Of a stretch of 12,726 nucleotides of DNA, positions 1 through 11,133 are shown in pieces. Both the position numbers and the translations under genes were made by a program. This DNA is from a virus (lineage: Duplodnaviria > Heunggongvirae > Uroviricota > Caudoviricetes), in IMG/VR virus record IMGVR_UViG_2651869782_000036, positions 1 to 12,726 of that record; one strand, written 5' to 3'. Position 1 is the stretch's first letter, and each line of letters starts with the position of its first letter. The notes beneath the pieces were generated by a model. That model did no database searches, was not told where the DNA came from, and worked only from the letters and a program-made list of their open reading frames with translations.

Positions 1-468
1 CCGTGGCCTTCCGCCACTCCGCCAACAGGCTGGCTGAAATGCAACGGTGCAGCATTTTCTGCTGAAGAATACCCGGAACTGGCAAAGGCTTATCCGACAA
101 ATAAATTGCCTGATTTACGTGGTGAGTTTATTCGTGGCTGGGATGACGGACGTGGTATGGATACGGGGAGGGCAATATTATCAGCTCAGGGCGATGCCAT
201 ACGTAATATCTATGGTGAGTTCAAGACTGTAAACACCGAAAATTATTCAATATGGGAAGTAGCAAGCTCGTTTAAGGGAGCAGTGGTGCCTTTGAGTCCC
301 TCTACAAACAATAGTTATTTCTCCTTAACCAGAAGTATGGTGACAGAAAGAGCAGACGGCGCTGTTTACCCAAAAGTGATAGGCCTTGATGCTTCAAGAA
401 TTGTTCCAACTGCAAACGAAAACCGTCCTCGTAACATTGCGTTTAATTACATCGTAAGGGCAGTATGA
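1..468 (+). CDS. Tail fibre C-terminal variable cassette 1 (5'-truncated by the window edge; presumably fused to the constant fibre N-terminus upstream, i.e. the expressed tip)
   Basis: Frame open from nt 1 (PWPSATPPTGWLKCNGAAF...LPDLRGEFIRGWDDGRG...) to TGA at 466-468. Tail-collar-like motif PDLRGxFxRGWDxGRG and conserved C-terminal RPRNIAFNYIVRAV. Confidence 0.8.
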   Translation, partial: PWPSATPPTGWLKCNGAAFSAEEYPELAKAYPTNKLPDLRGEFIRGWDDGRGMDTGRAILSAQGDAIRNIYGEFKTVNTENYSIWEVASSFKGAVVPLSPSTNNSYFSLTRSMVTERADGAVYPKVIGLDASRIVPTANENRPRNIAFNYIVRAV

Positions 469-487
469 AAACGTTGGTTTGGGGGAA
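462..487. other. Candidate Gin-family crossover site (gix/hix-like 26 bp: AGTATGAAAACG TT GGTTTGGGGGAA), + orientation
   Basis: Marks the exact left edge of the sequence shared by all cassette heads. Right half-site read as TTCCCCCAAACC matches the gix half-site TTCCTGTAAACC as I recall it in 9 of 12 positions; AAAAC/GTTTT dyad around a non-palindromic TT core. Overlaps the stop codon of cassette 1. Confidence 0.6.
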
Positions 488-937
488 GGCTCTGCGTTGC
501 CCGTTGGTGTACCTGTTCCGTGGCCCTCAGCCACACCGCCAGCAGGGTGGCTGAAATGTAACGGTGCAGCATTTTCTTCTAAAATGTACCCAAAACTGGC
601 AAAGGCCTACCCCACCAATAAATTACCAGACTTACGCGGTGAATTTATCCGTGGCTGGGATGATGGGCGCGGGGTGGATGCCGGAAGGGGCATCTTAAGC
701 ATGCAGGGGTGGTTAACAGGAAGTCATTATCATAATATTCGGTCATGGGATGCGTGGGATAACACGGTGTTGGTGCCAAATGACAAAGGAGGGGATAGTC
801 TGTTGTCGACAGATAACGCCGTCCGGCAAGGTGCAATTAACGGTAGATTTACCAGTCAATACAGAACGGAATCCTCAGAGGGGAATGAAACCCGCCCACG
901 CAATATTGCCTTCAATTATATTGTGAGAACCGCATAA
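479..937 (+). CDS. Tail fibre C-terminal variable cassette 2 (silent, promoter-less cassette; the TTG start in the ORF track is probably not used, the frame is open from 458 through the crossover site)
   Basis: 152-aa ORF with the same conserved head (GEGSALPVGVPVPWPSATPPAGWLKCNGAAF...PDLRGEFIRGWDDGRG) and tail (RPRNIAFNYIVRTA) but a different central region; stop TAA at 935-937 overlaps the tfa start. Confidence 0.8.
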   Translation: MGEGSALPVGVPVPWPSATPPAGWLKCNGAAFSSKMYPKLAKAYPTNKLPDLRGEFIRGWDDGRGVDAGRGILSMQGWLTGSHYHNIRSWDAWDNTVLVPNDKGGDSLLSTDNAVRQGAINGRFTSQYRTESSEGNETRPRNIAFNYIVRTA

Positions 938-1548
938 TGAATAACGCGATATTAAATGATGACCTTATTGCCGTACAGGCAGGAAACATCGTCGTTTATA
1001 ACTATGATGGTGAGACACGGGAATATATTTCCGAATCAACTGAATATCTTGCTGTGGGTGTCGGTATTCCGGCAAATTCCTGTTTAGATGCCCCGGGCGC
1101 ACATAAAGCGGGCTATGCTATCCGCCGTTCGGAGAATTTAAGCTCATGGGAGTATGCGCCAGACCATCGTGGTGAAACCGTCTATAGCACTGACACGGGA
1201 AACACCGAAGAAATCACGGCGCTGGGTGACTACCCGAAAAATACAACCACTATCGCCCCGTTAACACCATACGATAAATGGGATGGTGAAAAATGGGTGA
1301 CAGATACTGAGGCACAACATCGTGCCGCAGTAGAAGCGGCAGAAACCAAGCGCCAGTCACTGGCTGATGCGGCAATGGCTTCCATAAGTCTGATTCAGTT
1401 GAAGTTGCAGGCCGGGCGGAAGTTGACGCAGGCAGAAACCACCCGGCTTAATGCCGTGCTGGATTATATAGACGCGCTGAACGCAATGGATATAAACATG
1501 GCACCAGATATCAACTTGCCGGAAATACCACTGGCAGCAGCCAGTTGA
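937..1548 (+). CDS. Tail fibre assembly protein (Tfa; P2 G / Mu U family)
   Basis: 203 aa; the C-terminal region (EAAETKRQSLADAAMASISLIQ...LDYIDALNAMDINMAPDINLPEIP) has the character of the caudoviral tail-fibre-assembly domain; start ATG overlaps the cassette 2 stop (TAATG). Confidence 0.85.
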   Translation: MNNAILNDDLIAVQAGNIVVYNYDGETREYISESTEYLAVGVGIPANSCLDAPGAHKAGYAIRRSENLSSWEYAPDHRGETVYSTDTGNTEEITALGDYPKNTTTIAPLTPYDKWDGEKWVTDTEAQHRAAVEAAETKRQSLADAAMASISLIQLKLQAGRKLTQAETTRLNAVLDYIDALNAMDINMAPDINLPEIPLAAAS

Positions 1549-1554
1549 ATATAA

Positions 1555-2031
1555 CTAAGCCGCCCTCACGATATAGTTAAATGCAATATTGCGGGGGCGG
1601 GTTTCACTACCACCTGTGTTACCAATACTTCCTCGTGAATGAAGCGTTGGTGATGGAATCAAACTCCCTCCTGTATTTGTGGCATCAAGCCCCCTGCCTT
1701 GCGTATATGTTTTTTTGAAAATCGTGGCCAACTCCCATTCATCCTTTGTGTCATATCCATCGTTAGCTACAACAATATGGCGGTGTTTTTCCAACATCCC
1801 GTTTTGAATGCTCAATAAAGCGCGTGCCGCATCAATTCCTCGCCCATCATCCCAGCCACGGATAAATTCACCGCGTAAGTCTGGTAATTTATTGGTGGGG
1901 TAGGCCTTTGCCAGTTTTGGGTACTTTTCAGAAGAAAATGCTGCGCCGTTACATTTCAGCCATCCCGTTGGCGGCGTGGCTGAGGGCCATGGAACGGGCA
2001 CACCAACGGGCAGTGCAGAGCCTTCCCCCAA
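1555..2031 (-). CDS. Tail fibre C-terminal variable cassette 3 (inverted, silent)
   Basis: 158-aa minus-strand ORF with the conserved head and tail (…SETRPRNIAFNYIVRAA) and a unique centre; convergent with tfa. Confidence 0.8.
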   Translation of the reverse strand: MGEGSALPVGVPVPWPSATPPTGWLKCNGAAFSSEKYPKLAKAYPTNKLPDLRGEFIRGWDDGRGIDAARALLSIQNGMLEKHRHIVVANDGYDTKDEWELATIFKKTYTQGRGLDATNTGGSLIPSPTLHSRGSIGNTGGSETRPRNIAFNYIVRAA

Positions 2032-2048
2032 ACCAACGTTTTCATGCT
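2023..2048. other. Candidate Gin-family crossover site (inverted orientation; TTCCCCCAAACC AA CGTTTTCATGCT)
   Basis: Reverse complement differs from the site at 462-487 by one base; overlaps the cassette 4 stop codon and the cassette 3 head. Confidence 0.6.
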
Positions 2049-2470
2049 GCCCTTACGATGTAATTAAACGCAATATTACGAGGACGAATGGTTACATAAT
2101 TAACCCCATCACCTCGTGAAGGCCCTGCAAATGAAAAACGGGAAAAGCCTGGTTGGTTAGAAACAATTTGGTCATAGTTATTGATTGAATGACCAGACCC
2201 AATGTCGAAATTACCTCCGTAATGAGAAAAACTTGTACCATCCTGCCCTGAAAGCAGGGTACGTCCCGCATCAATCCCGCGCCCATCATCCCAGCCACGG
2301 ATAAATTCACCGCGTAAATCCGGTAATTTATTGGTGGGATAAGCCCTTGCCAGTCTGGGATACATTTCAGAAGAAAATGCTGCACCGTTACATTTCAGCC
2401 AGCCCGTTGGTGGTGTTGCTGAGGACCACGGAACGGGCACACCAACGGGCAGTGCAGAGCCTTCCCCCAA
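2042..2470 (-). CDS. Tail fibre C-terminal variable cassette 4 (inverted, silent)
   Basis: 142-aa minus-strand ORF, conserved head and tail (…IRPRNIAFNYIVRAA), Gly/Ser-rich unique centre. Confidence 0.8.
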   Translation of the reverse strand: MGEGSALPVGVPVPWSSATPPTGWLKCNGAAFSSEMYPRLARAYPTNKLPDLRGEFIRGWDDGRGIDAGRTLLSGQDGTSFSHYGGNFDIGSGHSINNYDQIVSNQPGFSRFSFAGPSRGDGVNYVTIRPRNIAFNYIVRAA

Positions 2471-2487
2471 ACCAACGTTTTCATGCT
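2462..2487. other. Candidate Gin-family crossover site (inverted orientation)
   Basis: Same 26-bp sequence as the site at 2023-2048 (TTCCCCCAAACCAACGTTTTCATGCT); overlaps the cassette 5 stop and the cassette 4 head. Confidence 0.6.
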
Positions 2488-2948
2488 GCCCTTACGATGT
2501 AATTAAACGCAATGTTATGGGGGCGTGTTTCAGATGCTGTGCGAACTGAGCGAGAGGCGTCGAATGTCCATACAGAAGCACCATATCCTTCAATGATCTC
2601 AGTTGGTTGTAAGCCTACTGATAATATAGAGTCAGTTTGACTAAATGGTCCTGAATTAAGCGCATCTTTAAAAAGCTGAGTACGCCCAAAAGTGCCAACT
2701 ATATTCTGAATAGCGTCAGACTGTGCAGACAGTAGGTTGCGCCCATTATCAACGCCCCGTCCGTCATCCCAGCCGCGAATAAATTCGCCCCGTAAATCCG
2801 GTAATTTATTGGTGGGGTAGGCCTTTGCCAGATTGGGGTACATTTCAGAAGAAAATGCTGCGCCGTTACATTTCAGCCACCCCGTTGGCAGCGTGGCTGA
2901 GGGCCATGGAACGGGCACGCCAACGGGCAACGCAGAGCCTTCCCCCAA
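2481..2948 (-). CDS. Tail fibre C-terminal variable cassette 5 (inverted, silent; the ORF-track extension to 3005 is probably fortuitous read-through into the invertase promoter region)
   Basis: Conserved head (GEGSALPVGVPVPWPSATLPTGWLKCNGAAF…) and tail (SETRPHNIAFNYIVRAA); the centre resembles cassette 1 (…SAQSDAIQNI…). Confidence 0.75.
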   Translation of the reverse strand: MGEGSALPVGVPVPWPSATLPTGWLKCNGAAFSSEMYPNLAKAYPTNKLPDLRGEFIRGWDDGRGVDNGRNLLSAQSDAIQNIVGTFGRTQLFKDALNSGPFSQTDSILSVGLQPTEIIEGYGASVWTFDASRSVRTASETRPHNIAFNYIVRAA

Positions 2949-2965
2949 ACCAACGTTTTCGTTTT
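2940..2965. other. Candidate Gin-family crossover site adjacent to the invertase gene (TTCCCCCAAACC AA CGTTTTCGTTTT)
   Basis: Same right half-site and core as the other three sites; the left arm differs because it is not preceded by a cassette 3' tail. Lies ~55 bp upstream of the invertase start, as for cix/gix next to cin/gin. Confidence 0.55.
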
Positions 2966-3019
2966 TATCCCTACCTATACCAACTCTGTATTTTTCACGA
3001 AACAAAGAGGATGTTTTTT

Positions 3020-3619
3020 ATGCAAATTGGCTATATTCGTGTGTCAACAAATGACCAGAACACGGATTTACAACGCAATGCACTGAACTGCGCAGGATGT
3101 GAACTGATTTTTGAAGATAAAATCAGCGGAACGAAATCAGCCAGACCGGGATTGAAAAAACTGCTCAGAACGCTATCAGAAGGAGATACGCTGGTTGTCT
3201 GGAAGCTGGACAGACTGGGCAGAAGTATGAAACACCTGATCACGCTTATTGAGGAATTGCGGGAAAAAGGTGTTAATTTCCGTAGTCTGACGGACAGCAT
3301 TGACACATCAACACCCATGGGGCGTTTCTTTTTTCACGTCATGGGGGCTTTAGCCGAAATGGAACGTGAATTAATTGTAGAGCGTACACTGGCCGGGCTG
3401 GCAGCAGCACGCGCACAAGGACGCATTGGCGGACGTCGCCCGAAGTTGACAAAAGAACAACACGAGCAAATAGCGAGGCTGATTAAAAACGGTCATGACA
3501 GGAAACAACTGGCGATCATTTACGACATCGGCATATCGACGATTTATCGTTATCACCCTGCAGGCGATATACAGGCTGAAGAAACAACCAGGCAGACTCA
3601 GGAAAATAAAAACCGCTAA
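3020..3619 (+). CDS. Site-specific DNA invertase, serine recombinase (Gin/Hin/Cin/Pin family)
   Basis: Start MQIGYIRVSTNDQNTDLQRNAL… is the hallmark invertase N-terminus with the catalytic Ser in GYIRVST; C-terminal HTH (GRRPKLTKEQHEQIARLIKNG…ISTIYRY). RBS AAAGAGG 9 nt upstream of ATG 3020. The ORF-track start at 2825 is rejected. Confidence 0.93.
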   Translation: MQIGYIRVSTNDQNTDLQRNALNCAGCELIFEDKISGTKSARPGLKKLLRTLSEGDTLVVWKLDRLGRSMKHLITLIEELREKGVNFRSLTDSIDTSTPMGRFFFHVMGALAEMERELIVERTLAGLAAARAQGRIGGRRPKLTKEQHEQIARLIKNGHDRKQLAIIYDIGISTIYRYHPAGDIQAEETTRQTQENKNR

Positions 3620-3641
3620 TCTGACCATTAGCGGTTTTGCG
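3608..3641. terminator. Bidirectional rho-independent terminator shared by the convergent invertase gene and tail operon
   Basis: Perfect 8-bp stem CCGCTAAT / ATTAGCGG (3613-3620, 3627-3634) with a 6-nt loop, flanked by an A-run on the left and TTTT on the right; the invertase stop codon lies inside the stem. Confidence 0.6.
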
Positions 3642-3645
3642 TTAA

Positions 3646-4134
3646 TCAAAACAGCCCTTTAACGGAGCTGGCCGCGCTGTTAAGGGATGATGTGACCTTA
3701 TCTTTGAAGCCGGACAGCATATCACTGAACGATGAGGATTGCAGGCGCTCCCGCAAATCCTCATCACAGCGTCCAAGAGTCAGTGAAAATTCTATCTTTT
3801 TCGCCTTACCGTAGCGATCAAACTCGGAACGGGTCGTATTCGTTTCAGTCAGTACATACATGCCGTAAATCTGCCCGACACCATCAATCAGAGGCCAGGG
3901 GCGTCCTGTATATGCCTGCGTGGTCAGCAACGAAAGCGACACTTCGCCACCTGTAATTTCAGGATAAAGCACGCCGGAAAGCACGATGCGATCATCACCT
4001 GCGCCGATATACTGCCAGCTTGCTGAACGATTAACGCGTTCATTTTTCACATGCCGCCAGCTTTTGTTTTGCTGTAACTGCTGATGCGGCAATGTGCGCA
4101 GCTCAAAAACAAACATGCCGTAGATCATCATCAT
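3646..4134 (-). CDS. U: Phage tail protein U (P2 gpU family)
   Basis: MMMIYGMFVFELRTLP…SASWQY…GGEVSLSLLTTQAYTGRPWPLIDG… resembles P2 gpU as I recall it; size and position after T fit. Start chosen at the second ATG (better SD spacing; the GAGGAG SD overlaps the T stop); ATG 4140 is the alternative. Confidence 0.85.
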   Translation of the reverse strand: MMMIYGMFVFELRTLPHQQLQQNKSWRHVKNERVNRSASWQYIGAGDDRIVLSGVLYPEITGGEVSLSLLTTQAYTGRPWPLIDGVGQIYGMYVLTETNTTRSEFDRYGKAKKIEFSLTLGRCDEDLRERLQSSSFSDMLSGFKDKVTSSLNSAASSVKGLF

Positions 4135-4146
4135 GGCCATGACTCC

Positions 4147-6963
4147 TCAATCTTTATCGTAAAAACTGCCACGTCCGGCACGGTCGCGTCGTTCCAATTC
4201 TGCCCTGACCATTTCACCGACCAGTTTCGCCAGTTCGCGGGGATTCTGCGTAACAACGTTATGCAGATGAACATGAATTTCACCGCCAAATCCGGAGACA
4301 ACAGGCTCCCGGTTACGGGAAGTTGCAGGAACTGATGCCACTGGCGATCGTATGGCCTCCGCCACCGGGCGGGAGCTGGCCGCAACAACAGGGACCAGCG
4401 CCGGAGGCAGAGGAGTCGGGACCACGGGTGTGATGTTGATTGCGGAAGCAGGCTTACTGACCTGCGCAATCTTCCGCTCCTGCCACTCCCCACGAACAGC
4501 AAGTGCGCGGGGCAGGTTCTTAAAGACAATATCGCCGGGGCCAATGCGTTTTTTCGTCTCATCAACCAGCTTACCTGTGTTATCAGCAATTTTGCTGAGT
4601 CTGCGTAGCGTACCGGTATTGCTGTCTGTGAGCGGTTTGTTGTCTTTGGGTTTATCACCTCCGGTGCCATTGCCATTTTCCACAGGCTTCGGCGGATTGA
4701 TTTTCGCCAGGTCCCCCTGAAGCAAGGCAACCTTGTCCTGAAGAATGGCCGCACGCTGTGCGTCTTCGATTTTCTTGCGCGCCCTTTCCGCTTCATCCGG
4801 AAGGACGCCAAGTTTTTCAAGTATCCACGCCAGCGTATCCAGTAGCATTTTTGCAGGCGTCAGAACAAGTTGTAACGCACCGCCAAGAACGTTACCGAAT
4901 ATCTCGCCAGCACTGGTACATTTTTCCAGCGTTTCCTTGCTGGACTCCATCGGTGACAGCAGCGATTTAAACCAGTTAAACACCTGGCTGATCCCGCTTC
5001 CGATTGCGTCAAAAACAGGACCAAACCGTTCAAAGGTTTCGCGCAACGGGGCCAGCCTTTCCATAATCCCGCTGAACACCCCGGCAAAAAATGCCCTGAT
5101 GGGATCCCAGTATTTCCAGATAAGAACGGCAGCTCCGGCAAGTGCAGCCACGATAAGACTAACCGGACTGAACAGCGCCCCGATAGCGCCTCCCAGTAAA
5201 GAAACGGAACCCGTCACCATTCCCCATAGTGCTGGCAGGACCCTGACAGCATTCATTGATCCGGTCAGGAGAGAAAAACCAAGACGCAGTTTTGCCAGCG
5301 GACCAGCAAGCATACCAATAGCCAGCGACAACGAGCCAACCGTTGCAGTCATTGCCAGCAACGCACCGCCTGCTATCAGTAGCTGGCGCGTCAGTGCCGG
5401 ATGGGCCTGCGCCAGCGCCGTCACCCTTGATACCACCCGCGTGAGCCACTGCGTGACAGAACGCAGCGGACCGTCAATCAGATCTGCAATGCGGATGCGC
5501 AACCCTTCCCATGCACTGCCGAGTGATTTCAGATCGCCGTCAAGGTTGTTGGCCATAACCTTTGCTGTGCGTTCAGCCTCACCGCGCGCGCCTTCAAGTT
5601 CTTTTCTCAGTTTGGGTAAGGAACCGTCACCCACTGCATCAACGAGCGCCATAAACGATGTGAAAGCCTCTTCTCCGGCAATGTCCTTAAAGAACGATAC
5701 CCGGTCAACTTCCCCGTATTTGCGGGTGGCTTTATAAAGGTCGGCCAGCACATCCTCCATCGGGCGCATTTTACCCCCGGCATCCGAGACGGACACGCCC
5801 AGCTCTTTCAGAGCTTCTGCCGCCGCCTTTGGCGGTGATGCCAGACGAGCCAGGCTGGCACGCATTGCCGTCCCGGCATCACTCCCTCTGATGCCCATAT
5901 TCGCCAGCACGCCAGCCATCGCTGCGGCCTGCTCCAGCGATATTCCCAGCTTACCCGCCACCGGACCTGCATATTTCATGGTTTCGCCCAGTGCGCGAAG
6001 GTCAGTGTTGGTACGGGTAAACGCTGCGGTGAGTGTGTCACCGACCCGGTCCATCTGGTCAGCAGAAAGGCCGAACTGCGTCAGGATATTTGAGCCAATA
6101 TCTGCCGTCTCGCCGAGATCCATACCGCCAGCCGTTGCCATGCTCAGCACTCCGGGAAGCGCAGCCTGAATGGCCTGCGGTGTGAAGCCTGCCATTGCAA
6201 GAAATGCCTGCCCACTGGCGGCATCGCCTGCAGTGAACTGCGTTTCAGAGCCAAGTTTTAACGCCTGTTCACGCAGCGCCTTAAACTGCGGGCTGTTCTG
6301 GTCGATTCGCGTCAGTGCCTGAACGCGGGACATCTCTTTCCCGAACCCGATCGCAGGCTGCAAAAAACGCCCGGCAGCATAGCTGCCAGCCGCTGCCGCA
6401 CCAATTGCCAGCGCACCACCTGTTTTCAGTTTTCCCGCGGTTTCCTGCGCGCGCGAATACCGCTCACGCGCACGTGTTACACGCGCAAGCGCCTGCCGTT
6501 CGCGTTCAAGCTGGTTGTTGTACTGTTCGGTGCGTCTGATGGCCTGCTGGATGGTGTTATCGCTGCCTGTCAGGGAAATGCCGTGGCGTTTCAGCTCTCC
6601 GCCAAGCTCCCGCATTTTCTGAATTTCCCGTGTGCGCGATTCATTCAGGCGTTCAAGCCGGGTGCTTAACTGCTGCATCAGCTTTTGTTGTTTTTCGCTG
6701 AGCACTGTACCCGTGCGTTGTAACTGATTAAGGGCGTTAAGCTGGCGTCGTGCTTTCAATATGCCAGCATCCGCTTTACCGACAGCGTCACGGGCGCGCT
6801 CAAATGAACGCGCCTGACGCTCGAGATTTTTGATCGCCCCCTGCGTTCGCTGGATGGAGTCACCAAACTGCCCCATCAGGCGGCGGGCGTTTTCGGCAGG
6901 CCGGGTCAGCCTGTCAACGGCGCTGAAAGCGACCCGGATGTCAAGAGTCTTCATTGTCTGCAT
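4147..6963 (-). CDS. T: Tail tape measure protein (P2 gpT family)
   Basis: ~940-aa Ala/Gly/Leu-rich ORF with a coiled-coil-like N-terminal half and hydrophobic Gly-rich segments, located between the E/E' chaperone and U. Start uncertain (ATG 6963 or 6954; the ORF track uses GTG 6990). Confidence 0.85.
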   Translation of the reverse strand: MQTMKTLDIRVAFSAVDRLTRPAENARRLMGQFGDSIQRTQGAIKNLERQARSFERARDAVGKADAGILKARRQLNALNQLQRTGTVLSEKQQKLMQQLSTRLERLNESRTREIQKMRELGGELKRHGISLTGSDNTIQQAIRRTEQYNNQLERERQALARVTRARERYSRAQETAGKLKTGGALAIGAAAAGSYAAGRFLQPAIGFGKEMSRVQALTRIDQNSPQFKALREQALKLGSETQFTAGDAASGQAFLAMAGFTPQAIQAALPGVLSMATAGGMDLGETADIGSNILTQFGLSADQMDRVGDTLTAAFTRTNTDLRALGETMKYAGPVAGKLGISLEQAAAMAGVLANMGIRGSDAGTAMRASLARLASPPKAAAEALKELGVSVSDAGGKMRPMEDVLADLYKATRKYGEVDRVSFFKDIAGEEAFTSFMALVDAVGDGSLPKLRKELEGARGEAERTAKVMANNLDGDLKSLGSAWEGLRIRIADLIDGPLRSVTQWLTRVVSRVTALAQAHPALTRQLLIAGGALLAMTATVGSLSLAIGMLAGPLAKLRLGFSLLTGSMNAVRVLPALWGMVTGSVSLLGGAIGALFSPVSLIVAALAGAAVLIWKYWDPIRAFFAGVFSGIMERLAPLRETFERFGPVFDAIGSGISQVFNWFKSLLSPMESSKETLEKCTSAGEIFGNVLGGALQLVLTPAKMLLDTLAWILEKLGVLPDEAERARKKIEDAQRAAILQDKVALLQGDLAKINPPKPVENGNGTGGDKPKDNKPLTDSNTGTLRRLSKIADNTGKLVDETKKRIGPGDIVFKNLPRALAVRGEWQERKIAQVSKPASAINITPVVPTPLPPALVPVVAASSRPVAEAIRSPVASVPATSRNREPVVSGFGGEIHVHLHNVVTQNPRELAKLVGEMVRAELERRDRAGRGSFYDKD

Positions 6964-7162
6964 TCCCGCTGCGAAGTGCCGCCCGCTCACGCCAGCTAAC
7001 CACTTCGCCGGGCGTCATCATGAAGATTTCGGCGGGCGACCAGTTAAAAATGGCGGCGATATCTGCCACCAGATCTTCGATGTGCTCAAAGCACACCAGG
7101 GTGATTACGCTGCCGTCTCCTGCACGCTCTTCGCGCCAGAGTCTGGCTCGCTCATAAAATTT
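6941..7162 (-). CDS. E' extension: -1 frame ORF giving the E+E' tail assembly chaperone by programmed frameshift
   Basis: An ORF in the -1 frame relative to E, with no independent SD, overlaps the 3' part of E and the start of T; a canonical slippery heptamer A AAT TTT sits in the E frame inside the overlap. Confidence 0.5.
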   Translation of the reverse strand, partial: KFYERARLWREERAGDGSVITLVCFEHIEDLVADIAAIFNWSPAEIFMMTPGEVVSWRERAALRSGNADNEDS

Positions 7163-7479
7163 ACAGCCACAGCGCACAACTGAATAAAATCGCGTGACGA
7201 CATTTTTTTAATCATCACTTCATCCAGTCGTGGCGAGGTCACGCGAGGCAACAGCGTGAACATGGTATCCGCTTTCAGATTCAGCACATCAGACAGCGAC
7301 AGACCACGCAGGGATCCAGCCTGTTCAATAGCCCCGGTGATCTCCACATACGTGATTTTTTCGCCACCACGCTCAATTGGTCGGGTCAGTTTTACGCCAC
7401 GTTCGACAGCCATATCCTCACCTGCCGTCACATCATCCGCCACGGTGTTATTCCGGGTTTCAGTATCGATGTCTTTCAT
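7105..7479 (-). CDS. E: Tail assembly chaperone E (P2 gpE family)
   Basis: 124-aa ORF between tube and tape measure genes with a strong SD (AAAGGAG, 7 nt spacing); the position and the overlapping -1 ORF match the conserved chaperone pair (lambda G/GT, P2 E/E+E'). Confidence 0.7.
   Translation of the reverse strand: MKDIDTETRNNTVADDVTAGEDMAVERGVKLTRPIERGGEKITYVEITGAIEQAGSLRGLSLSDVLNLKADTMFTLLPRVTSPRLDEVMIKKMSSRDFIQLCAVAVNFMSEPDSGAKSVQETAA
7156..7162 (-). other. Candidate -1 programmed frameshift slippery heptamer A AAT TTT (read on the minus strand)
   Basis: Zero-frame codons GTA AAT TTT ATG (…AVNFM…); a -1 re-pairing gives AAA TTT TAT GAG… = KFYE…, exactly the E' reading frame. Confidence 0.4.
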
Positions 7480-7534
7480 CAGTTGTCTCCTTTTCAGTCA
7501 GAGGCGACGCACTGCGCCGCCTGCATATTACTTA

Positions 7535-8047
7535 TCAGCCAAGCCCGAGCGCGGAACGGATGCGATCGGGCACAATGTCCTTGCCGTCCTTCCGGTAAAT
7601 GAAGTTCAGCAGGTCAATCTCCCACAACGGGCGATCGTTAACACTCAGCTTGTAGTAGGTGTTTTTAATGGCGTAAGTGTGTGATGTGGCTTCGCCCTGT
7701 TTGGCTTCCCCCATATCAATTTCCGTCACACGTCCGCGCATTTCGACTTCATACAGGTCGCTTTCTGCATCGGTGTAGTATTCACCCGCAAAACGCAGCA
7801 GCGTGCCGTCAATCGTGCCGCCATACTTAAGGAACAGCTCACGAACTGCGCCCCCCATGACAAAGCTCGCATCAAGCGCGGAGTCGTCCAGACCGAGATC
7901 AATACTTACCGCACCCATCATGCCACCACCCCGGTAGCTGTCGGTTTTGCGCGTCAGCTTAGGCAGAGTGACGGACGTCACCTTACCCACTTCGTTTTCA
8001 CCATCCACAAACAGCGTAAAAAAGCGAAGATGTTTTGGTACAGCCAT
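7535..8047 (-). CDS. FII: Tail tube protein (P2 gpFII family)
   Basis: 170 aa; MAVPKHLRFFTLFVDGENEVGKVTSVTLPKLTRKTDSYRGGGMMGAVSIDLGLDD… resembles P2 FII as I recall it (…VTLPKLTRK…YRGAGM…DLGLDD…). Start ATG overlaps the FI stop (TGATG); SD GGGAGG. Confidence 0.88.
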   Translation of the reverse strand: MAVPKHLRFFTLFVDGENEVGKVTSVTLPKLTRKTDSYRGGGMMGAVSIDLGLDDSALDASFVMGGAVRELFLKYGGTIDGTLLRFAGEYYTDAESDLYEVEMRGRVTEIDMGEAKQGEATSHTYAIKNTYYKLSVNDRPLWEIDLLNFIYRKDGKDIVPDRIRSALGLG

Positions 8048-9231
8048 CAGGCACCTCCCAGCACCGCAAATGCGGGACCAAAGAATTCATCAGTAAACGA
8101 CTGGTAAAGCTCCATGTCTTCCAGCGGGGGAACAGGCGTATATTTGTAGCGAATACGCACGCGCCCCTGACGTAAATTCGTGGTGCCGTTATCCACCACG
8201 TCATACCAGCACGACGCCCCAATCAGTTTCCCGGCAGTAACCAGTGAATCCAGTTTTGCCCTGATGGCACTGATAACATCTTTCACGTTCGCAGGCGTCA
8301 GTGGACTGTCGATGGTTTCAAACTGCGCTTCCGCAATTGAATCAGCCAGCACCTGTGCGGTTCGGGTATACACCTCAAAGATGTAGGCGTTCGTTTCCGG
8401 TGTGCGGTTGCCCCAGAAGCGGAACCCGTTGCGACGAATAATGGTCGTGATTTCTTTGTTGTTGAGGCTGTTGGCATCACTGTCTTCGGCCTGCAACGAC
8501 CAGAACACATGCCTAGACATCCCCAGCACATTTTTAACCGGAACGTTGGACAGCGATTTGTGCCAGCCCTGCTCATGGTCAATGTACGCACGAAGGCCGC
8601 ACGCATAGGCAGGCGCGGGGAACGTTTCGTTTTTGCCACTTTTCGGGTTGTAGGCGATGAAGTCCGGCCATAAGAGCATCACCTCACGTTCGTTGAATTT
8701 CTGGCGATAGGTAATCGCCTCAGCCATCGTGTTACAGCCGTGACATGAGGCATACACAAACGCGCGCAGTTTACCTGCAATCACGCACAGGGATTTTGTT
8801 ACCGCCTCCGTGTCCAGCTCCGGCGCGGCCAGAATACGCGGACGGTATCCGATGCTTTCATCCTGCTCTGCAACAAGCAGCGCATACATCCCCGTATAGC
8901 TGCCGTCAGATTCAGAACCACCGATAACCAGTTGATCCTGCGTTTTTCCGTCTTCTTCTTTGTGTTCAGCCACGCGAACGACGATCACCTTTGTGCTCAC
9001 CTGGTCTGCGATGGCCTTAAGCGCACGATAAAGCGTCCCCGTTGTTCCGCATTTTCCCAGCACGTCATTGACGCGGGTCAGCAGTGTGGGCTTGTTCAGC
9101 GGGAACAGCTCCGCATCCGCATCATCCGCCGTTGCCACGATACCGATAACACTGGAATCAACATCATTAATCGCTGTTACCAGGTCGGTACTTTCCGTAA
9201 CACGGGCACCATGAAAACGAGTTTCACTCAT
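8047..9231 (-). CDS. FI: Contractile tail sheath protein (P2 gpFI family)
   Basis: 394 aa; motifs shared with P2 FI as I recall it (ADDADAELFPLNKP, GFRFWGNRT, YTRTAQV, YTPVPPLE); SD AAGGGG upstream of ATG 9231. Confidence 0.9.
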   Translation of the reverse strand: MSETRFHGARVTESTDLVTAINDVDSSVIGIVATADDADAELFPLNKPTLLTRVNDVLGKCGTTGTLYRALKAIADQVSTKVIVVRVAEHKEEDGKTQDQLVIGGSESDGSYTGMYALLVAEQDESIGYRPRILAAPELDTEAVTKSLCVIAGKLRAFVYASCHGCNTMAEAITYRQKFNEREVMLLWPDFIAYNPKSGKNETFPAPAYACGLRAYIDHEQGWHKSLSNVPVKNVLGMSRHVFWSLQAEDSDANSLNNKEITTIIRRNGFRFWGNRTPETNAYIFEVYTRTAQVLADSIAEAQFETIDSPLTPANVKDVISAIRAKLDSLVTAGKLIGASCWYDVVDNGTTNLRQGRVRIRYKYTPVPPLEDMELYQSFTDEFFGPAFAVLGGA

Positions 9232-9388: not shown

Positions 9389-10498
9389 ATGACCGACACC
9401 ACCATGCAATTGCTCAGTCAGGGCACAGACCCCGTGAAAATGCCGGATTTTGATATTCTCGCGGAGGGTAAAACGCTGTCCGGCGTGGCAGAGCGCCTGA
9501 TGAGCCTGTCGCTGACCGACAACCGGGGATTTGAGGCGGACCAGCTCACCATCACGCTGGATGATGCCGATGGCCAGTTGCAGCTACCGCCACGGGGCGC
9601 GCGTCTGACGGTTCTCATTGGCTGGAAAGGGGAACCGCTGACAGAAAAAGGCACTTACATTGTTGATGAAATCGCTCACGAAGGACCGCCGGACAGGCTG
9701 ACTGTTTCAGCCAGAAGCGCAGATTTTCGGGATGAATTTAACGTTAAACGTGAGGTGTCCTGGCATGATGTGACCGTTGAGCGTGTGGTATCCGCCATCG
9801 CTCATCGGTACGGTCTGAAACCGCAAATCAGCGAAATGCTGATGGATATCGAAATCGACCACGCCGACCAGACCGAAGAAAGCGACATGTCCTTTCTTAC
9901 GCGCATGGCGGAAATGCTGGGCGCAATCACCACGGTAAAAAGCGGCAATCTGTTATTCATCATGCCAGGTGGTGGCGTGAACGCACAGGGCCAGCCGTTG
10001 CCCTCGTTCGCCATTACACGCAGCAGCGGCGATCGCCATCAGTTCCGTATTGCTGACCGCGAGGCGTATACGGGGGTACGCGCCTACTGGCTTGATCTTA
10101 ATTACGGGAAAAAGAAAAAAGTCAGCGTGAAACGCCGTAAACCGCCAAAACCCAAAAAGGAGAAAAGCAGCAGCCGTGAAGGTGATTATATGGAAGGCGC
10201 GGAAGGCAATGTGTTTGTGTTACGCAAGACTTATCAGAACGAGCAGGCAGCAAGACGCGCAGCGGCGGCAAAGTGGCAGCAACTACAACGCGGAGCCGCA
10301 TCATTCTCCATCACACTGGCTCGTGGACGCGCAGAACTCTACCCCGAAATGCATGGCACGGTGACAGGCTTCAAAAGTGACATCGACAATCAGGACTGGA
10401 TTATTGCAAAAGCCGAGCACACCATTGATAACAGCGGCTTTACCACGCAGCTTGAGCTTGAAGCAAAAATCCCGGAATGGATAGCAGAAACAGAGTGA
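9389..10498 (+). CDS. D: Phage late control / tail protein D (P2 gpD family)
   Basis: ~369 aa from ATG 9389, preceded by SD GGGAGGGAA; contains LSLSLTDNRGFEADQLTITLDDADG, which matches the gpD family as I recall it. The ORF-track start at 9257 is rejected as having no SD. Adjacent to ogr as in P2. Confidence 0.75.
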   Translation: MTDTTMQLLSQGTDPVKMPDFDILAEGKTLSGVAERLMSLSLTDNRGFEADQLTITLDDADGQLQLPPRGARLTVLIGWKGEPLTEKGTYIVDEIAHEGPPDRLTVSARSADFRDEFNVKREVSWHDVTVERVVSAIAHRYGLKPQISEMLMDIEIDHADQTEESDMSFLTRMAEMLGAITTVKSGNLLFIMPGGGVNAQGQPLPSFAITRSSGDRHQFRIADREAYTGVRAYWLDLNYGKKKKVSVKRRKPPKPKKEKSSSREGDYMEGAEGNVFVLRKTYQNEQAARRAAAAKWQQLQRGAASFSITLARGRAELYPEMHGTVTGFKSDIDNQDWIIAKAEHTIDNSGFTTQLELEAKIPEWIAETE

Positions 10499-10540
10499 GC
10501 AACTTAGAATAGCGGCAGCACCACGTTAAGGGAGGTCGCT

Positions 10541-10801
10541 ATGTTCCGTTGTCCGCTTTGTGGCGCATCTGCCCGTATCCGCACCAGTCGTTCGGAAAAT
10601 GATTCAAACACCGTACGGAAAAAATATTACCAGTGTAACAACCTGGAATGCGGCATAAGTTTCTCAACACTGGAAGCTTTCCATAAATTCACATCGAAAC
10701 ACGCCCCCGGCGTTCACTCTTCAGAAGGTATCCCGTGGCATGAGTTGCCAGCTTCACACAGGGGAAACAATCAGATGAGTTTGCCTTTATCTCAGAATTA
10801 A
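10541..10801 (+). CDS. ogr: Ogr/Delta-family zinc-finger late transcription activator
   Basis: 86 aa; MFRCPLCG…(22 aa)…CNNLEC gives the C-X2-C-X22-C-X4-C spacing typical of Ogr; N-terminus resembles P2 Ogr (MFHCPLC…). SD TAAGGGAGG 5 nt upstream. Confidence 0.8.
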   Translation: MFRCPLCGASARIRTSRSENDSNTVRKKYYQCNNLECGISFSTLEAFHKFTSKHAPGVHSSEGIPWHELPASHRGNNQMSLPLSQN

Positions 10802-10992: not shown

Positions 10993-11133
10993 ATGTCGCA
11001 AAAATCGCTTACGGCCATCACGTTCTGCGTGACGGTAATCCTCATAATCTGGATGCTGCACGGTTCGCTGTGTGAAATACGGATGAGCTTCTGGGGAGCG
11101 GAGTTTGCGGCGTTCTTACAGTGTAAGCAGTAA
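10993..11133 (+). CDS. Hok/Gef-family type I toxin-like small membrane protein (46 aa)
   Basis: MSQKSLTAITFCVTVILIIWMLHGSLCEIRMSFWGAEFAAFLQCKQ: N-terminal hydrophobic helix followed by SLCEIR and E-x-AAF-x-x-C/Y, as in Hok (…[23 protein letters not shown]…). SD AAGGAG 8 nt upstream of the ATG. Below the 60-aa cutoff of the ORF track. Confidence 0.65.
   Translation: MSQKSLTAITFCVTVILIIWMLHGSLCEIRMSFWGAEFAAFLQCKQ

Follow-up and report, generated by a model that had tools for sequence, protein, structure and literature searches.

A probable Min-type multiple DNA inversion switch for the receptor-binding tail-fibre tip of a P2-like prophage

Results

We conclude with high confidence that a P2-like prophage beside serS carries a Min-type multiple DNA inversion switch for its receptor-binding tail-fibre tip. 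The window, which is the whole stretch of 12,726 nucleotides that was analysed, holds in positions 1-3619 five Collar-domain tail-fibre 3' cassettes, with a and b on the plus strand and c, d and e on the minus strand. The conclusion is based on the anatomy of the locus, the identity of its sites with mix sites, the family of its invertase, the alternative arrangements in near-identical prophages and the mapped crossovers. The principle has already been described for the Min system of plasmid p15B, and experimentally for the 98.8% identical prophage of E2348/69, and the mechanism is not new. In close relatives, isomers coexist in clonal cultures (PMC4272514) and deletion of gin abolishes switching (PMC13418256).

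Five tail-fibre cassettes share a head and a tail

The preliminary description had placed five alternative fibre C-termini in this region, and all five proved to be open reading segments in the ORF list and the protein alignment. The cassettes and the assembly gene among them are as follows.

1..468, plus strand: cassette a, recognized by ORF, alignment and Collar domain; 5' end cut by the window start
476..937 (open reading segment 479-937), plus strand: cassette b, left arm of the large M-like segment; always tfa-linked in relatives
937..1548, plus strand: tfa, tail-fibre assembly (chaperone) gene, sole copy (Pfam Caudo_TAP, E 2e-31; PHROG 105)
1555..2034 (open reading segment 1555-2031), minus strand: cassette c, right arm of the M-like segment, tail to tail with tfa
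2042..2473 (open reading segment 2042-2470), minus strand: cassette d, small invertible segment, 439 bp core to core
2481..2951 (open reading segment 2481-2948), minus strand: cassette e, small invertible segment, 478 bp core to core

The proposal that the cassettes share a head and a tail around unrelated centres held, with revised sizes of 75-78 aa for the head, 14 aa for the tail and approximately 60-75 aa for the centres. The 58 invariant columns of the cassette protein alignment fall within the head (~75-78 aa; consensus GEGSALPVGVPVPW...LPDLRGEFIRGWDDGRG.D..R..LS.Q) and the 14-aa tail (consensus RP[RH]NIAFNYIVR..), and each cassette matches Pfam Collar (PF07484) with E values of 1e-14 to 1e-15. 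In the DNA, the heads are visible as direct and inverted repeats (179-283 nt, 76-91% identity), which is far above chance. The b-tfa-c' segment measures 1561 bp core to core, and the stop codon of cassette b overlaps the start of tfa (ATAATG). The layout is thus that of a Min-type array, with one large segment made of two tail-to-tail cassettes and a single tfa, plus small segments with a single cassette each. The tfa gene, which the preliminary description did not mention, is part of the largest invertible segment.

The window begins within cassette a; the constant part of the fibre gene H, the fifth site and the fusion junction were read from sister prophages. In-frame fusions of H to each of the five cassettes occur among relatives, with the joint between ...VLDYL and GLGEGS. 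The sister prophages contain no cassettes other than a-e, and the window has the full set; cassette a is therefore probably the tip now fused to the constant part of H. The cassette a of the window is only about 92% identical to that of the sister prophages.

The cassettes are presented differently in RefSeq, namely as separate genes for independent small tail proteins ('phage tail protein', TTG starts). Every cassette is called as a CDS by PGAP, the Leu codon of GLGEGS being an in-frame TTG in all five. However, this TTG lies within the conserved crossover site and is preceded only by the stop codon of the neighbouring cassette, and relatives have these cassettes as in-frame extensions of a 380-aa constant H part. 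We therefore regard the existence of five independent genes as next to impossible.

Crossover sites match the mix sites of p15B

A 26-bp site had been proposed at the head of each cassette. Four such sites were found in the window, whereas the fifth, belonging to cassette a, lies beyond its left end.

462..487 (core 474-475), plus strand: crossover site B, AGTATGAAAACG-TT-GGTTTGGGGGAA, at the head of cassette b
2023..2048 (core 2035-2036), minus strand: crossover site C, TTCCCCCAAACC-AA-CGTTTTCATGCT
2462..2487 (core 2474-2475), minus strand: crossover site D, same sequence as site C
2940..2965 (core 2952-2953), minus strand: crossover site E, TTCCCCCAAACC-AA-CGTTTTCGTTTT

As in other systems of the Din family, the sites are 26 bp long and consist of two imperfect 12-bp inverted half-sites around a common 2-bp core. 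Site B, whose outer half holds the stop codon of cassette a, is oriented opposite to C, D and E, and the array therefore has inverted sites in cis. Site E is the fixed right boundary, and its outer half is unchanged in every isomer. A fifth site is found at the H junction in sister prophages, so that the array has more than two sites, as a multiple-inversion array must.

An alignment with known sites, suggested in the preliminary description and here including published mix and pix sites, identified the left half and core as those of the p15B mix sites; the core of gix differs, being GA where it is AA here. The site pattern is TTCCCCCAAACC-AA-CGTTTT..., and the left half, core and first six bases of the right half match the mix sites (PMC3241671 Table 3). 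Over this length the sites are identical to mixMl''L' and mixN''O', and the H-junction site of the sister prophages is identical to mixQ''R' at 26 of 26 positions. The AA core was present in all 249 sites from 95 related loci.

Based on these features we propose the following mechanism. The constant 5' part of H would lie just to the left of the window and end in a crossover site, and the five 3' cassettes, promoterless and start-less, would each open with the same site. The invertase would recombine any rightward-pointing site with any leftward-pointing one at the 2-bp AA core, which would lie in the codon just before GLGEGS. The DNA between the recombined sites would thereby invert, and another cassette would be fused in frame to H.

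Natural isomers are found in sister prophages

The closest relatives were found by exact-protein look-up. Records of the phage collection each span no more than half of the array region, and none of the complete RefSeq E. coli genomes matches the array at ≥99% over its full length. Matches to parts of the module occur in about half of the complete E. coli genomes; the complete module, with as many as seven tips, is present on P1-like plasmids in E. coli (86-89% DNA identity).

The sister set consists of seven loci, L084-L090, which sit at the same serS site and have an identical tape-measure protein of 935 aa; their fixed flank is 99.69-99.98% identical, with almost no gaps. The look-up also gave an eighth locus, L091, which has this flank but different tips. 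Six of the seven sisters (L084-L087, L089 and L090) span the whole array and hold cassettes a-e in five other orders or orientations; these loci are mostly draft or metagenome assemblies, in which repeat-rich arrays are possibly partly mis-joined. Each of these arrangements is one to three legal inversions away from the state of the window, and array length is constant. Thus the comparison across related prophages that had been suggested revealed the same cassettes in five other arrangements. With the mix-like sites, the shared architecture and these near-identical prophages rearranged by inversion rules, the earlier reading of the locus as a multiple-inversion system like Min of p15B is borne out.

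In every clearly resolved locus, rightward cassettes lie to the left of the b-tfa-c' core and leftward cassettes to its right, L004 and L026 being the odd cases. The b-tfa-c' unit is unbroken in the closest loci; in L020 the left arm is another one, and in L004 the unit is duplicated. Two assemblies of E2348/69 are one whole-array inversion apart (H~d c tfa' b' versus H~b tfa c' d').

A model based on site orientation gives 48 isomers and five tips from the four movable segments a, [b-tfa-c'], d and e. The preliminary description had spoken of at least five tips and many isomers; multiple isomers were indeed found, but this lineage has exactly five tips and, by the model, 48 isomers. For a five-segment array the model gives 240 isomers, and 240 is the number for p15B Min. 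The model also reproduces the four variants and three C-termini reported for E2348/69 (PMC4272514).

It could be argued that the array is a frozen relic in this genome, its cassettes being duplicated remnants in a decaying prophage that no longer switches. Relatives are often defective, with gpD disrupted in E2348/69, PE15, L085 and L089; cassette c has a 1-nt indel in L087 and L089, and PGAP labels some cassettes as pseudogenes. In the window, however, the five cassettes, tfa, the invertase (with Ser9), the four sites and gpD (369 aa) are all intact. Moreover, the gpD-defective prophage of E2348/69 still switches (PMC4272514), and sisters less than 0.3% diverged hold five other arrangements. 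We consider a relic highly improbable.

Most crossovers map to the 26-bp sites

Among the 34 cassettes of the six spanning sister loci and the window, 29 keep their whole head linked to their own centre while the outer half-site stays linked to position. The first diagnostic SNP of the head is at nt 20, and the outer half-site is fixed up to the base beside the core. From this linkage, the crossover must lie within 22 nt, made up of the core and 20 further nt.

The remaining 5 of 34, all in sister prophages, have mosaic heads: a reciprocal c/e swap in L089 (at head nt 176-179), an a-type head on c in L084, and three in L090. These indicate that some exchanges occur inside the ~234-bp heads, away from the site, by homologous recombination or conversion. 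They are also what would be expected if RecA were mainly responsible for rearrangement, by homologous recombination between the inverted repeats of the heads (180-280 bp, 76-90% identity), with the invertase incidental or inactive. In contrast, the crossover lies at the 26-bp site in 29 of 34 cassettes, and the sites match functional mix sites to the base, with one core throughout. Furthermore, isomers make up 10-50% of single-colony cultures in relatives (PMC4272514), and in a relative switching is lost when gin is deleted (PMC13418256). Taken together, these data make a mainly RecA-dependent origin highly improbable and argue for site-specific inversion by the invertase.

The invertase and its flanking elements

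The serine invertase gene reported at the right end of the array was confirmed as a member of the Gin family by Pfam and by its match to Mu Gin. The gene and its neighbouring elements are listed below.

2966..3019, plus strand: fixed spacer from array to invertase gene, read from the sequence
3020..3619, plus strand: serine DNA invertase of the Gin/Hin/Cin/Pin/Min (Din) family, 199 aa (Pfam, structures, PHROG 125)
3020..3125, plus strand: candidate recombinational enhancer, inferred, within invertase codons 1-35
3609..3638, no strand assigned: hairpin with a 12-bp stem, flanked on either side by runs of A and T, where the invertase gene and gpU converge

The protein matches Pfam Resolvase (E 1e-51) and HTH_7 (E 4e-13), and it matches the Mu Gin structures 4m6f and 3uj3 with an E value of 1e-91 over residues 1-187. 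It has the catalytic Ser9, the VSTNDQ motif and a wild-type Met114, in keeping with a Din serine recombinase. The wild-type Met114 suggests that the invertase is enhancer-dependent, and we infer dependence on Fis as well. By analogy with relatives, the invertase is likely to be active in this particular genome.

Across 38 distinct invertase genes, synonymous diversity is 0.29 in codons 1-35 versus 0.48 over the remaining codons (Mann-Whitney p 6e-6), and this block has the lowest value among 107 blocks of equal size. Such low diversity fits an embedded DNA element, at the position that the enhancer has in hin and gin. Degenerate Fis-site scans of the 5' region of the gene were too unspecific to be informative.

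The spacer presumably holds the promoter and ribosome-binding site (aaagagg, 3004-3010) of the invertase gene. A sigma-70 promoter scan of positions 1-4200 gave fewer matches than shuffled sequence, and no promoter can therefore be assigned from it. The hairpin looks like a bidirectional terminator, judging from its stem and flanking runs. An Rfam scan of the whole window gave no family at the gathering threshold and no Sok-type antisense RNA beside hok.

A single assembly gene within the large invertible segment

The tfa gene sits inside the large invertible segment and is 100% identical in L004-L006 and in the sister prophages L084, L086, L087, L089 and L090. Of the 48 isomers, 24 have tfa running antisense to the H operon, and sequenced genomes often show the gene in such a state. 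Scans for the Ogr/Delta box and for sigma-70 promoters found no promoter for tfa in its antisense state. P2 late promoters have a -55 geometry for the activator box. Ogr/Delta boxes (TGT-N12-ACA) were considered as a source of tfa expression in the inverted state, one in the spacer after site E (2987-3004) and one within cassette b (768-785). They were rejected, since these 2 matches in the window compare with 3.2 expected by chance, and since the spacing to any -10-like hexamer misfits the -55 geometry.

The FI-FII-E-T-U late operon points towards the array in this phage group, opposite to canonical P2. A recent inversion of the FI-U block (3646-9231) by this invertase was considered and rejected, since the orientation is the same in all relatives examined and is a fixed group feature. 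A relic secondary site at the FI 5' end (9204-9219, a 16-nt outer half-site match) was likewise discarded, as the match is at chance level all-against-all and 2 nt out of register.

Late transcription from the right might come from the FI-FII-E-T-U operon, or from a leftward promoter close to the invertase gene that has escaped recognition, a possibility that we consider unlikely. If this were true, the chaperone would be made in either orientation of the central segment. Otherwise, the fibres made by half of the progeny-producing cells would lack the chaperone, either as a hidden cost or as a second level of phase variation.

Discussion

The locus would let a temperate phage hedge its host range, as one lysogen clone could release virions with five different receptor-binding tips, which would be expected to differ in the hosts that they recognize. 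The array also accounts for assemblies that break or differ at this place, and for silent cassettes annotated as separate 'phage tail protein' genes. The principle dates from p15B Min (1990), and what the locus contributes is a further, well-resolved example together with its natural isomers.

The Min system of p15B has six mix sites (Sandmeier, Iida, Arber 1990-92). The present array resembles it in the sites, with left half TTCCCCCAAACC, core AA and a right half starting CGTTTT, and in the layout, in which two tail-to-tail tips and one tfa make up a large segment beside small single-tip segments, with the invertase gene at one end. In contrast, Min belongs to a P1-like plasmid prophage with six sites and 240 isomers, whereas the array here is in a chromosomal P2-like prophage with five sites and 48 isomers, and the tip centres differ.

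Mu Gin/G, P1 Cin/C and e14 Pin/P also recombine at 26-bp sites around a 2-bp core, joining one constant 5' part of the fibre gene to alternative 3' parts, and the invertase described here is a close homologue of Mu Gin (E 1e-91). Unlike the present array, with its five sites and a single assembly gene for five tips, these systems have two sites, one segment and two states, with an own assembly gene for each orientation (U/U'). The R64 shufflon (Rci) similarly selects one of several C-terminal segments of the PilV adhesin by multiple inversion. However, it uses a tyrosine recombinase and unrelated sfx sites and acts on a pilus adhesin rather than a phage fibre, and the likeness is one of analogy only.

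An experimental counterpart is the P2-like prophage of EPEC E2348/69, in which four isomers coexist in single-colony cultures, as determined by sequencing and PCR (Goldberg 2014, PMC4272514). Its tail and invertase genes are 98.8% identical to those in the window over 6.2 kb, and it has the same b, c, d, tfa and sites. It differs in having three tips and four isomers, a location near ihfA-pheT and a disrupted gpD, whereas the window array adds the small segments a and e and adjoins serS.

Finally, the Enterobacter prophage FRphi (Nat Microbiol 2026, PMC13418256), likened here by its published description, belongs to another host and phage and has three tips. A gin-type recombinase lies 3' of its fibre gene, which has alternative C-termini. 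When gin is deleted the shufflon is locked, and of the three tips only one infects the host that was tested (PMC13418256). The same paper mentions related loci with up to six paralogs, and the reported isoform shares of 50/25/25% (PMC13418256) equal the prediction of our four-state model.

Organization of the tip array

The window covers the rightmost part of a P2-like prophage that adjoins serS. On the serS side, matches include many E. coli genomes carrying a P2-like prophage here (e.g., UTI89, 97.8%).

Features of the window (coordinates, strand where assigned, feature)
1-2965, tip array
1-468, +, tail-fibre cassette a
479-937, +, cassette b
937-1548, between b and c, tail-fibre assembly (chaperone) gene tfa, Caudo_TAP
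1555-2031, -, cassette c
2042-2470, -, cassette d
2481-2948, -, cassette e
3020-3619, invertase gene
3646-9231, all -, gpU, tape measure, E, tube and sheath block
9389-10498, +, gpD, intact, 369 aa
10541-10801, +, ogr
10993-11133, +, hok/gef gene, 46 aa
11434-12726, -, serS

The preliminary description had read the array as five alternative fibre 3' cassettes, with a common head and tail around unrelated centres and a Gin-family invertase at the right end, and both readings were borne out. Alignment of the five segments yields 58 invariant columns, in a head of ~75-78 aa and the tail RP[RH]NIAFNYIVR.., and the centres do not align with one another. Every cassette matches the Pfam Collar domain and is similar to the ends of the T4 fibres gp37 and gp12 that bind the receptor. 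At the DNA level, the heads form direct and inverted repeats of 179-283 nt. The stop codon of b and the start of tfa overlap, and 6 nt separate the end of tfa from the stop of c. The invertase contains Resolvase and HTH_7 domains, can be aligned to Mu Gin across 187 residues (E 1e-91) and has an intact catalytic Ser9 motif.

Just past the head, the tips fall into two classes (window 700-760, 1760-1800 and 2200-2260 versus 170-230 and 2690-2740). The first carries an HxH-type motif (SHYH in b, KHRH in c, SHY in d; DHAH, SHTH and AHRH among many types in other loci), and the second, a and e, opens with DAI[RQ]NI. T4 gp12 and gp37 carry metal-binding histidines, of which the HxH-type motif is, by analogy, reminiscent.

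Cassette a of the window is ~91-92% identical to that of the sister prophages, as against mostly 100% for the other cassettes and at least 99.69% for the 9.8-kb flank. The window starts within the repeated head of this cassette, as if the contig broke at that point. In RefSeq (PGAP) annotation of related loci (L001-L003, L092-L095), silent cassettes appear as separate 'phage tail protein' CDSs with a TTG start within the crossover site, or alternatively as pseudogenes 'missing N-terminus'; they are promoterless 3' gene segments.

Crossover sites and the H junction

A 26-bp site had been proposed at the head of each cassette. Four such sites lie in the window, and none lies inside it at the head of cassette a.

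Crossover sites in the window
Site B, 462-487, TTCCCCCAAACC AA CGTTTTCATACT, opposite strand
Site C, 2023-2048, TTCCCCCAAACC AA CGTTTTCATGCT
Site D, 2462-2487, TTCCCCCAAACC AA CGTTTTCATGCT
Site E, 2940-2965, TTCCCCCAAACC AA CGTTTTCGTTTT

Aligned with the Din-family site table (PMC3241671), these sites equal the mix sites of plasmid p15B throughout the left half and the AA core and for six further bases into the right half; the gix sites of Mu differ, with a GA core (PMC3241671). The inner half-site codes for GLGE of the cassette head, and the outer half-site holds the neighbouring cassette's stop codon or, at site E, a fixed spacer. Because the core falls in the codon just before GLGEGS, the reading frame is kept on exchange.

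The constant part of H, the fibre gene, falls outside the window, past position 1, and is known here from relatives. Its 380 aa, ending ...VLDYL, are joined to d in ECA64, to b in E2348/69 and to e in PE15. The H-junction site of the sister prophages, TTCCCCCAAACC AA GGTAATCAAGAA, is identical to mixQ''R' at 26/26 positions.

Din invertases are known to depend on a Fis-bound enhancer that lies in the 5' part of the invertase gene itself. Among the 38 distinct invertase genes of the loci, synonymous diversity was 0.29 in codons 1-35 versus 0.48 in codons 36-175 (Mann-Whitney p 6e-6), and codons 1-35 were the lowest of 107 equal-size blocks. This low diversity fits an embedded DNA element, a candidate enhancer, and other constraints may act. 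Fis motif scans of the invertase 5' region were uninformative.

Arrangements in related prophages

Eight loci came from an exact look-up of the tape-measure protein. In seven of them, the sister prophages L084-L090, this array is present, either beside serS or at the end of a contig; the eighth, L091, has the flank in common with the window and has different tips. In the sister loci, the 9.8 kb that follow site E on its right match the window at 99.69-99.98% identity, essentially gap-free, and for cassettes b-e and tfa the identity to the window is mostly 100%.

Arrangement of the array (prime, as on the minus-strand cassettes c, d and e of the window; ~, fusion to H)
Window: a b tfa c' d' e'
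L084, L085: H~c tfa' b' e' a' d'
L086: H~a e b tfa c' d'
L087: H~d c tfa' b' a' e'
L089: H~e d b tfa c' a'
L090: H~a e c tfa' b' d'

In L088, a draft contig with head genes directly after the cassettes, only a', e' and d' are visible beside the invertase. The comparison across related prophages suggested earlier recovers the same five cassettes in five other arrangements, and the span between the H junction and the start of the invertase gene does not vary. We modelled the array as four segments with oriented bounding sites, allowing inversion between opposed sites only. The model reaches 48 isomers, and all observed arrangements are 1-3 inversions away from that of the window. For E2348/69 it gives 4 states and 3 tips, equal to the published counts, and for a five-segment array 240 isomers; the isomer number of p15B is 240. 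Independent assemblies of E2348/69 differ by one whole-array inversion.

A Tfa protein search of IMG/VR provided 80 loci for comparison of unit orientation. The central b-tfa-c' unit occurs in both orientations relative to H and the invertase. In every clearly resolved locus, cassettes to its left point rightward and those to its right leftward, as site-specific inversion predicts; L004 and L026 are odd cases. The unit is unsplit in the closest loci; L020 has another left arm, and in L004 the unit is duplicated. Many of the 80 contigs, like the window, end within the array, as short-read assemblies do under population heterogeneity.

Two rearrangements cannot be reached by inversion alone. In L004 (3793-7176) the central unit is duplicated as a palindrome (c tfa' b' b tfa c'), and in PE15 (L003; 11736, 14377) cassette e is present twice, once fused to H and once beside the invertase.

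Exchange within the repeated heads

Across the window, L084-L087, L089 and L090, the outer half-site tracks position as far as the base adjoining the core, and the head tracks its own centre in 29 of the 34 cassettes, starting at the first diagnostic SNP, which lies 20 nt inside. Those exchanges therefore fell within a 22-nt interval holding the core. Five heads are counted as mosaic beside these 29, and mosaic heads (window 476-710 and equivalents) are found on c and e of L089, c of L084, and b, c and d of L090, a metagenome scaffold that may be chimeric. In L089 the heads of c and e are reciprocally swapped with a breakpoint at head nt 176-179, a pattern that is the signature of inversion by crossing-over within the repeat; in L084 cassette c bears an a-type head. 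Together, the mosaic heads show homologous exchange or gene conversion within the repeats besides site-specific crossover, a minority route that probably keeps the heads alike.

A single assembly gene

One tfa serves five tips, in contrast to Mu and P1, where each orientation has its own assembly gene. Inversion of the central segment places tfa antisense to the H operon. This is the case in 24 of the 48 modelled isomers and in about ten of the ~two dozen loci with H and tfa both visible (including L008, L009, L011, L015, L018, L025, L084, L087, L090 and L092). No promoter for tfa in the antisense state was found; TGT-N12-ACA boxes, considered as a tfa promoter signal, were rejected, since their two matches are at chance level.

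Neighbouring genes

A strong hairpin stands between the array and the converging gpU operon, at 3609-3638 between the converging invertase and gpU genes; its perfect 12-bp stem is bordered by runs of A and of T, and it looks like a bidirectional terminator. Here the sheath-tube-E-tape measure-gpU block (3646-9231, -) is opposed to gpD and ogr (9389-10801, +) and to the fibre operon, whereas in canonical P2 all of these are co-oriented. FI and gpD are thus divergent here, and gpU and the invertase gene converge. ECA64, E2348/69, PE15 and L084-L091 share this order, which is therefore a fixed trait of the phage group. Invertases, and inversion of genes adjacent to them, are noted at the Z/fun hotspot of P2-like phages in a 2024 preprint.

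Truncated copies of gpD occur in PE15, in L085 and in E2348/69 as assembled in NC_011601, ECA64 has a frameshifted copy, L089 lacks a gpD call, and the gene is full-length in the CP059840 assembly of E2348/69 (L002). Many copies of this prophage lineage are thus defective, with the shuffling array still present. The hok/gef gene, located at the prophage end in the interval from ogr to serS, encodes a Hok/Gef-family toxin (Pfam E 4e-7); an Rfam scan of the entire window gave no Sok-type antisense RNA or other Rfam family at threshold.

Comparison with known systems

The mix-type sites, the natural isomers and the parallels in p15B and E2348/69 uphold the proposal of a Min-like multiple-inversion tip switch. 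The module is that of p15B Min, carried here on a P2 chassis, and P1-like plasmids in E. coli have the same array and invertase, 86-89% identical and with as many as seven tips. Over 6.2 kb, the window and the E2348/69 prophage share 98.8% identity, and the inversion sizes of that prophage match a b-tfa-c'-d array. For this P2-like prophage, three inverted repeats and four coexisting variants with three C-termini were confirmed by PCR (Goldberg 2014, PMC4272514). In an Enterobacter prophage, isoforms have shares of 50/25/25%, deletion of gin locks the state and one tip only infects; the same study mentions loci with up to six paralogs (2026, PMC13418256). Whether the arrangement had been described was left as a question in the preliminary description; switches of this type are already published. 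By this comparison, the earlier interpretation was right and the type of system already known: the tip array is real, correctly interpreted and ordinary for E. coli prophages.
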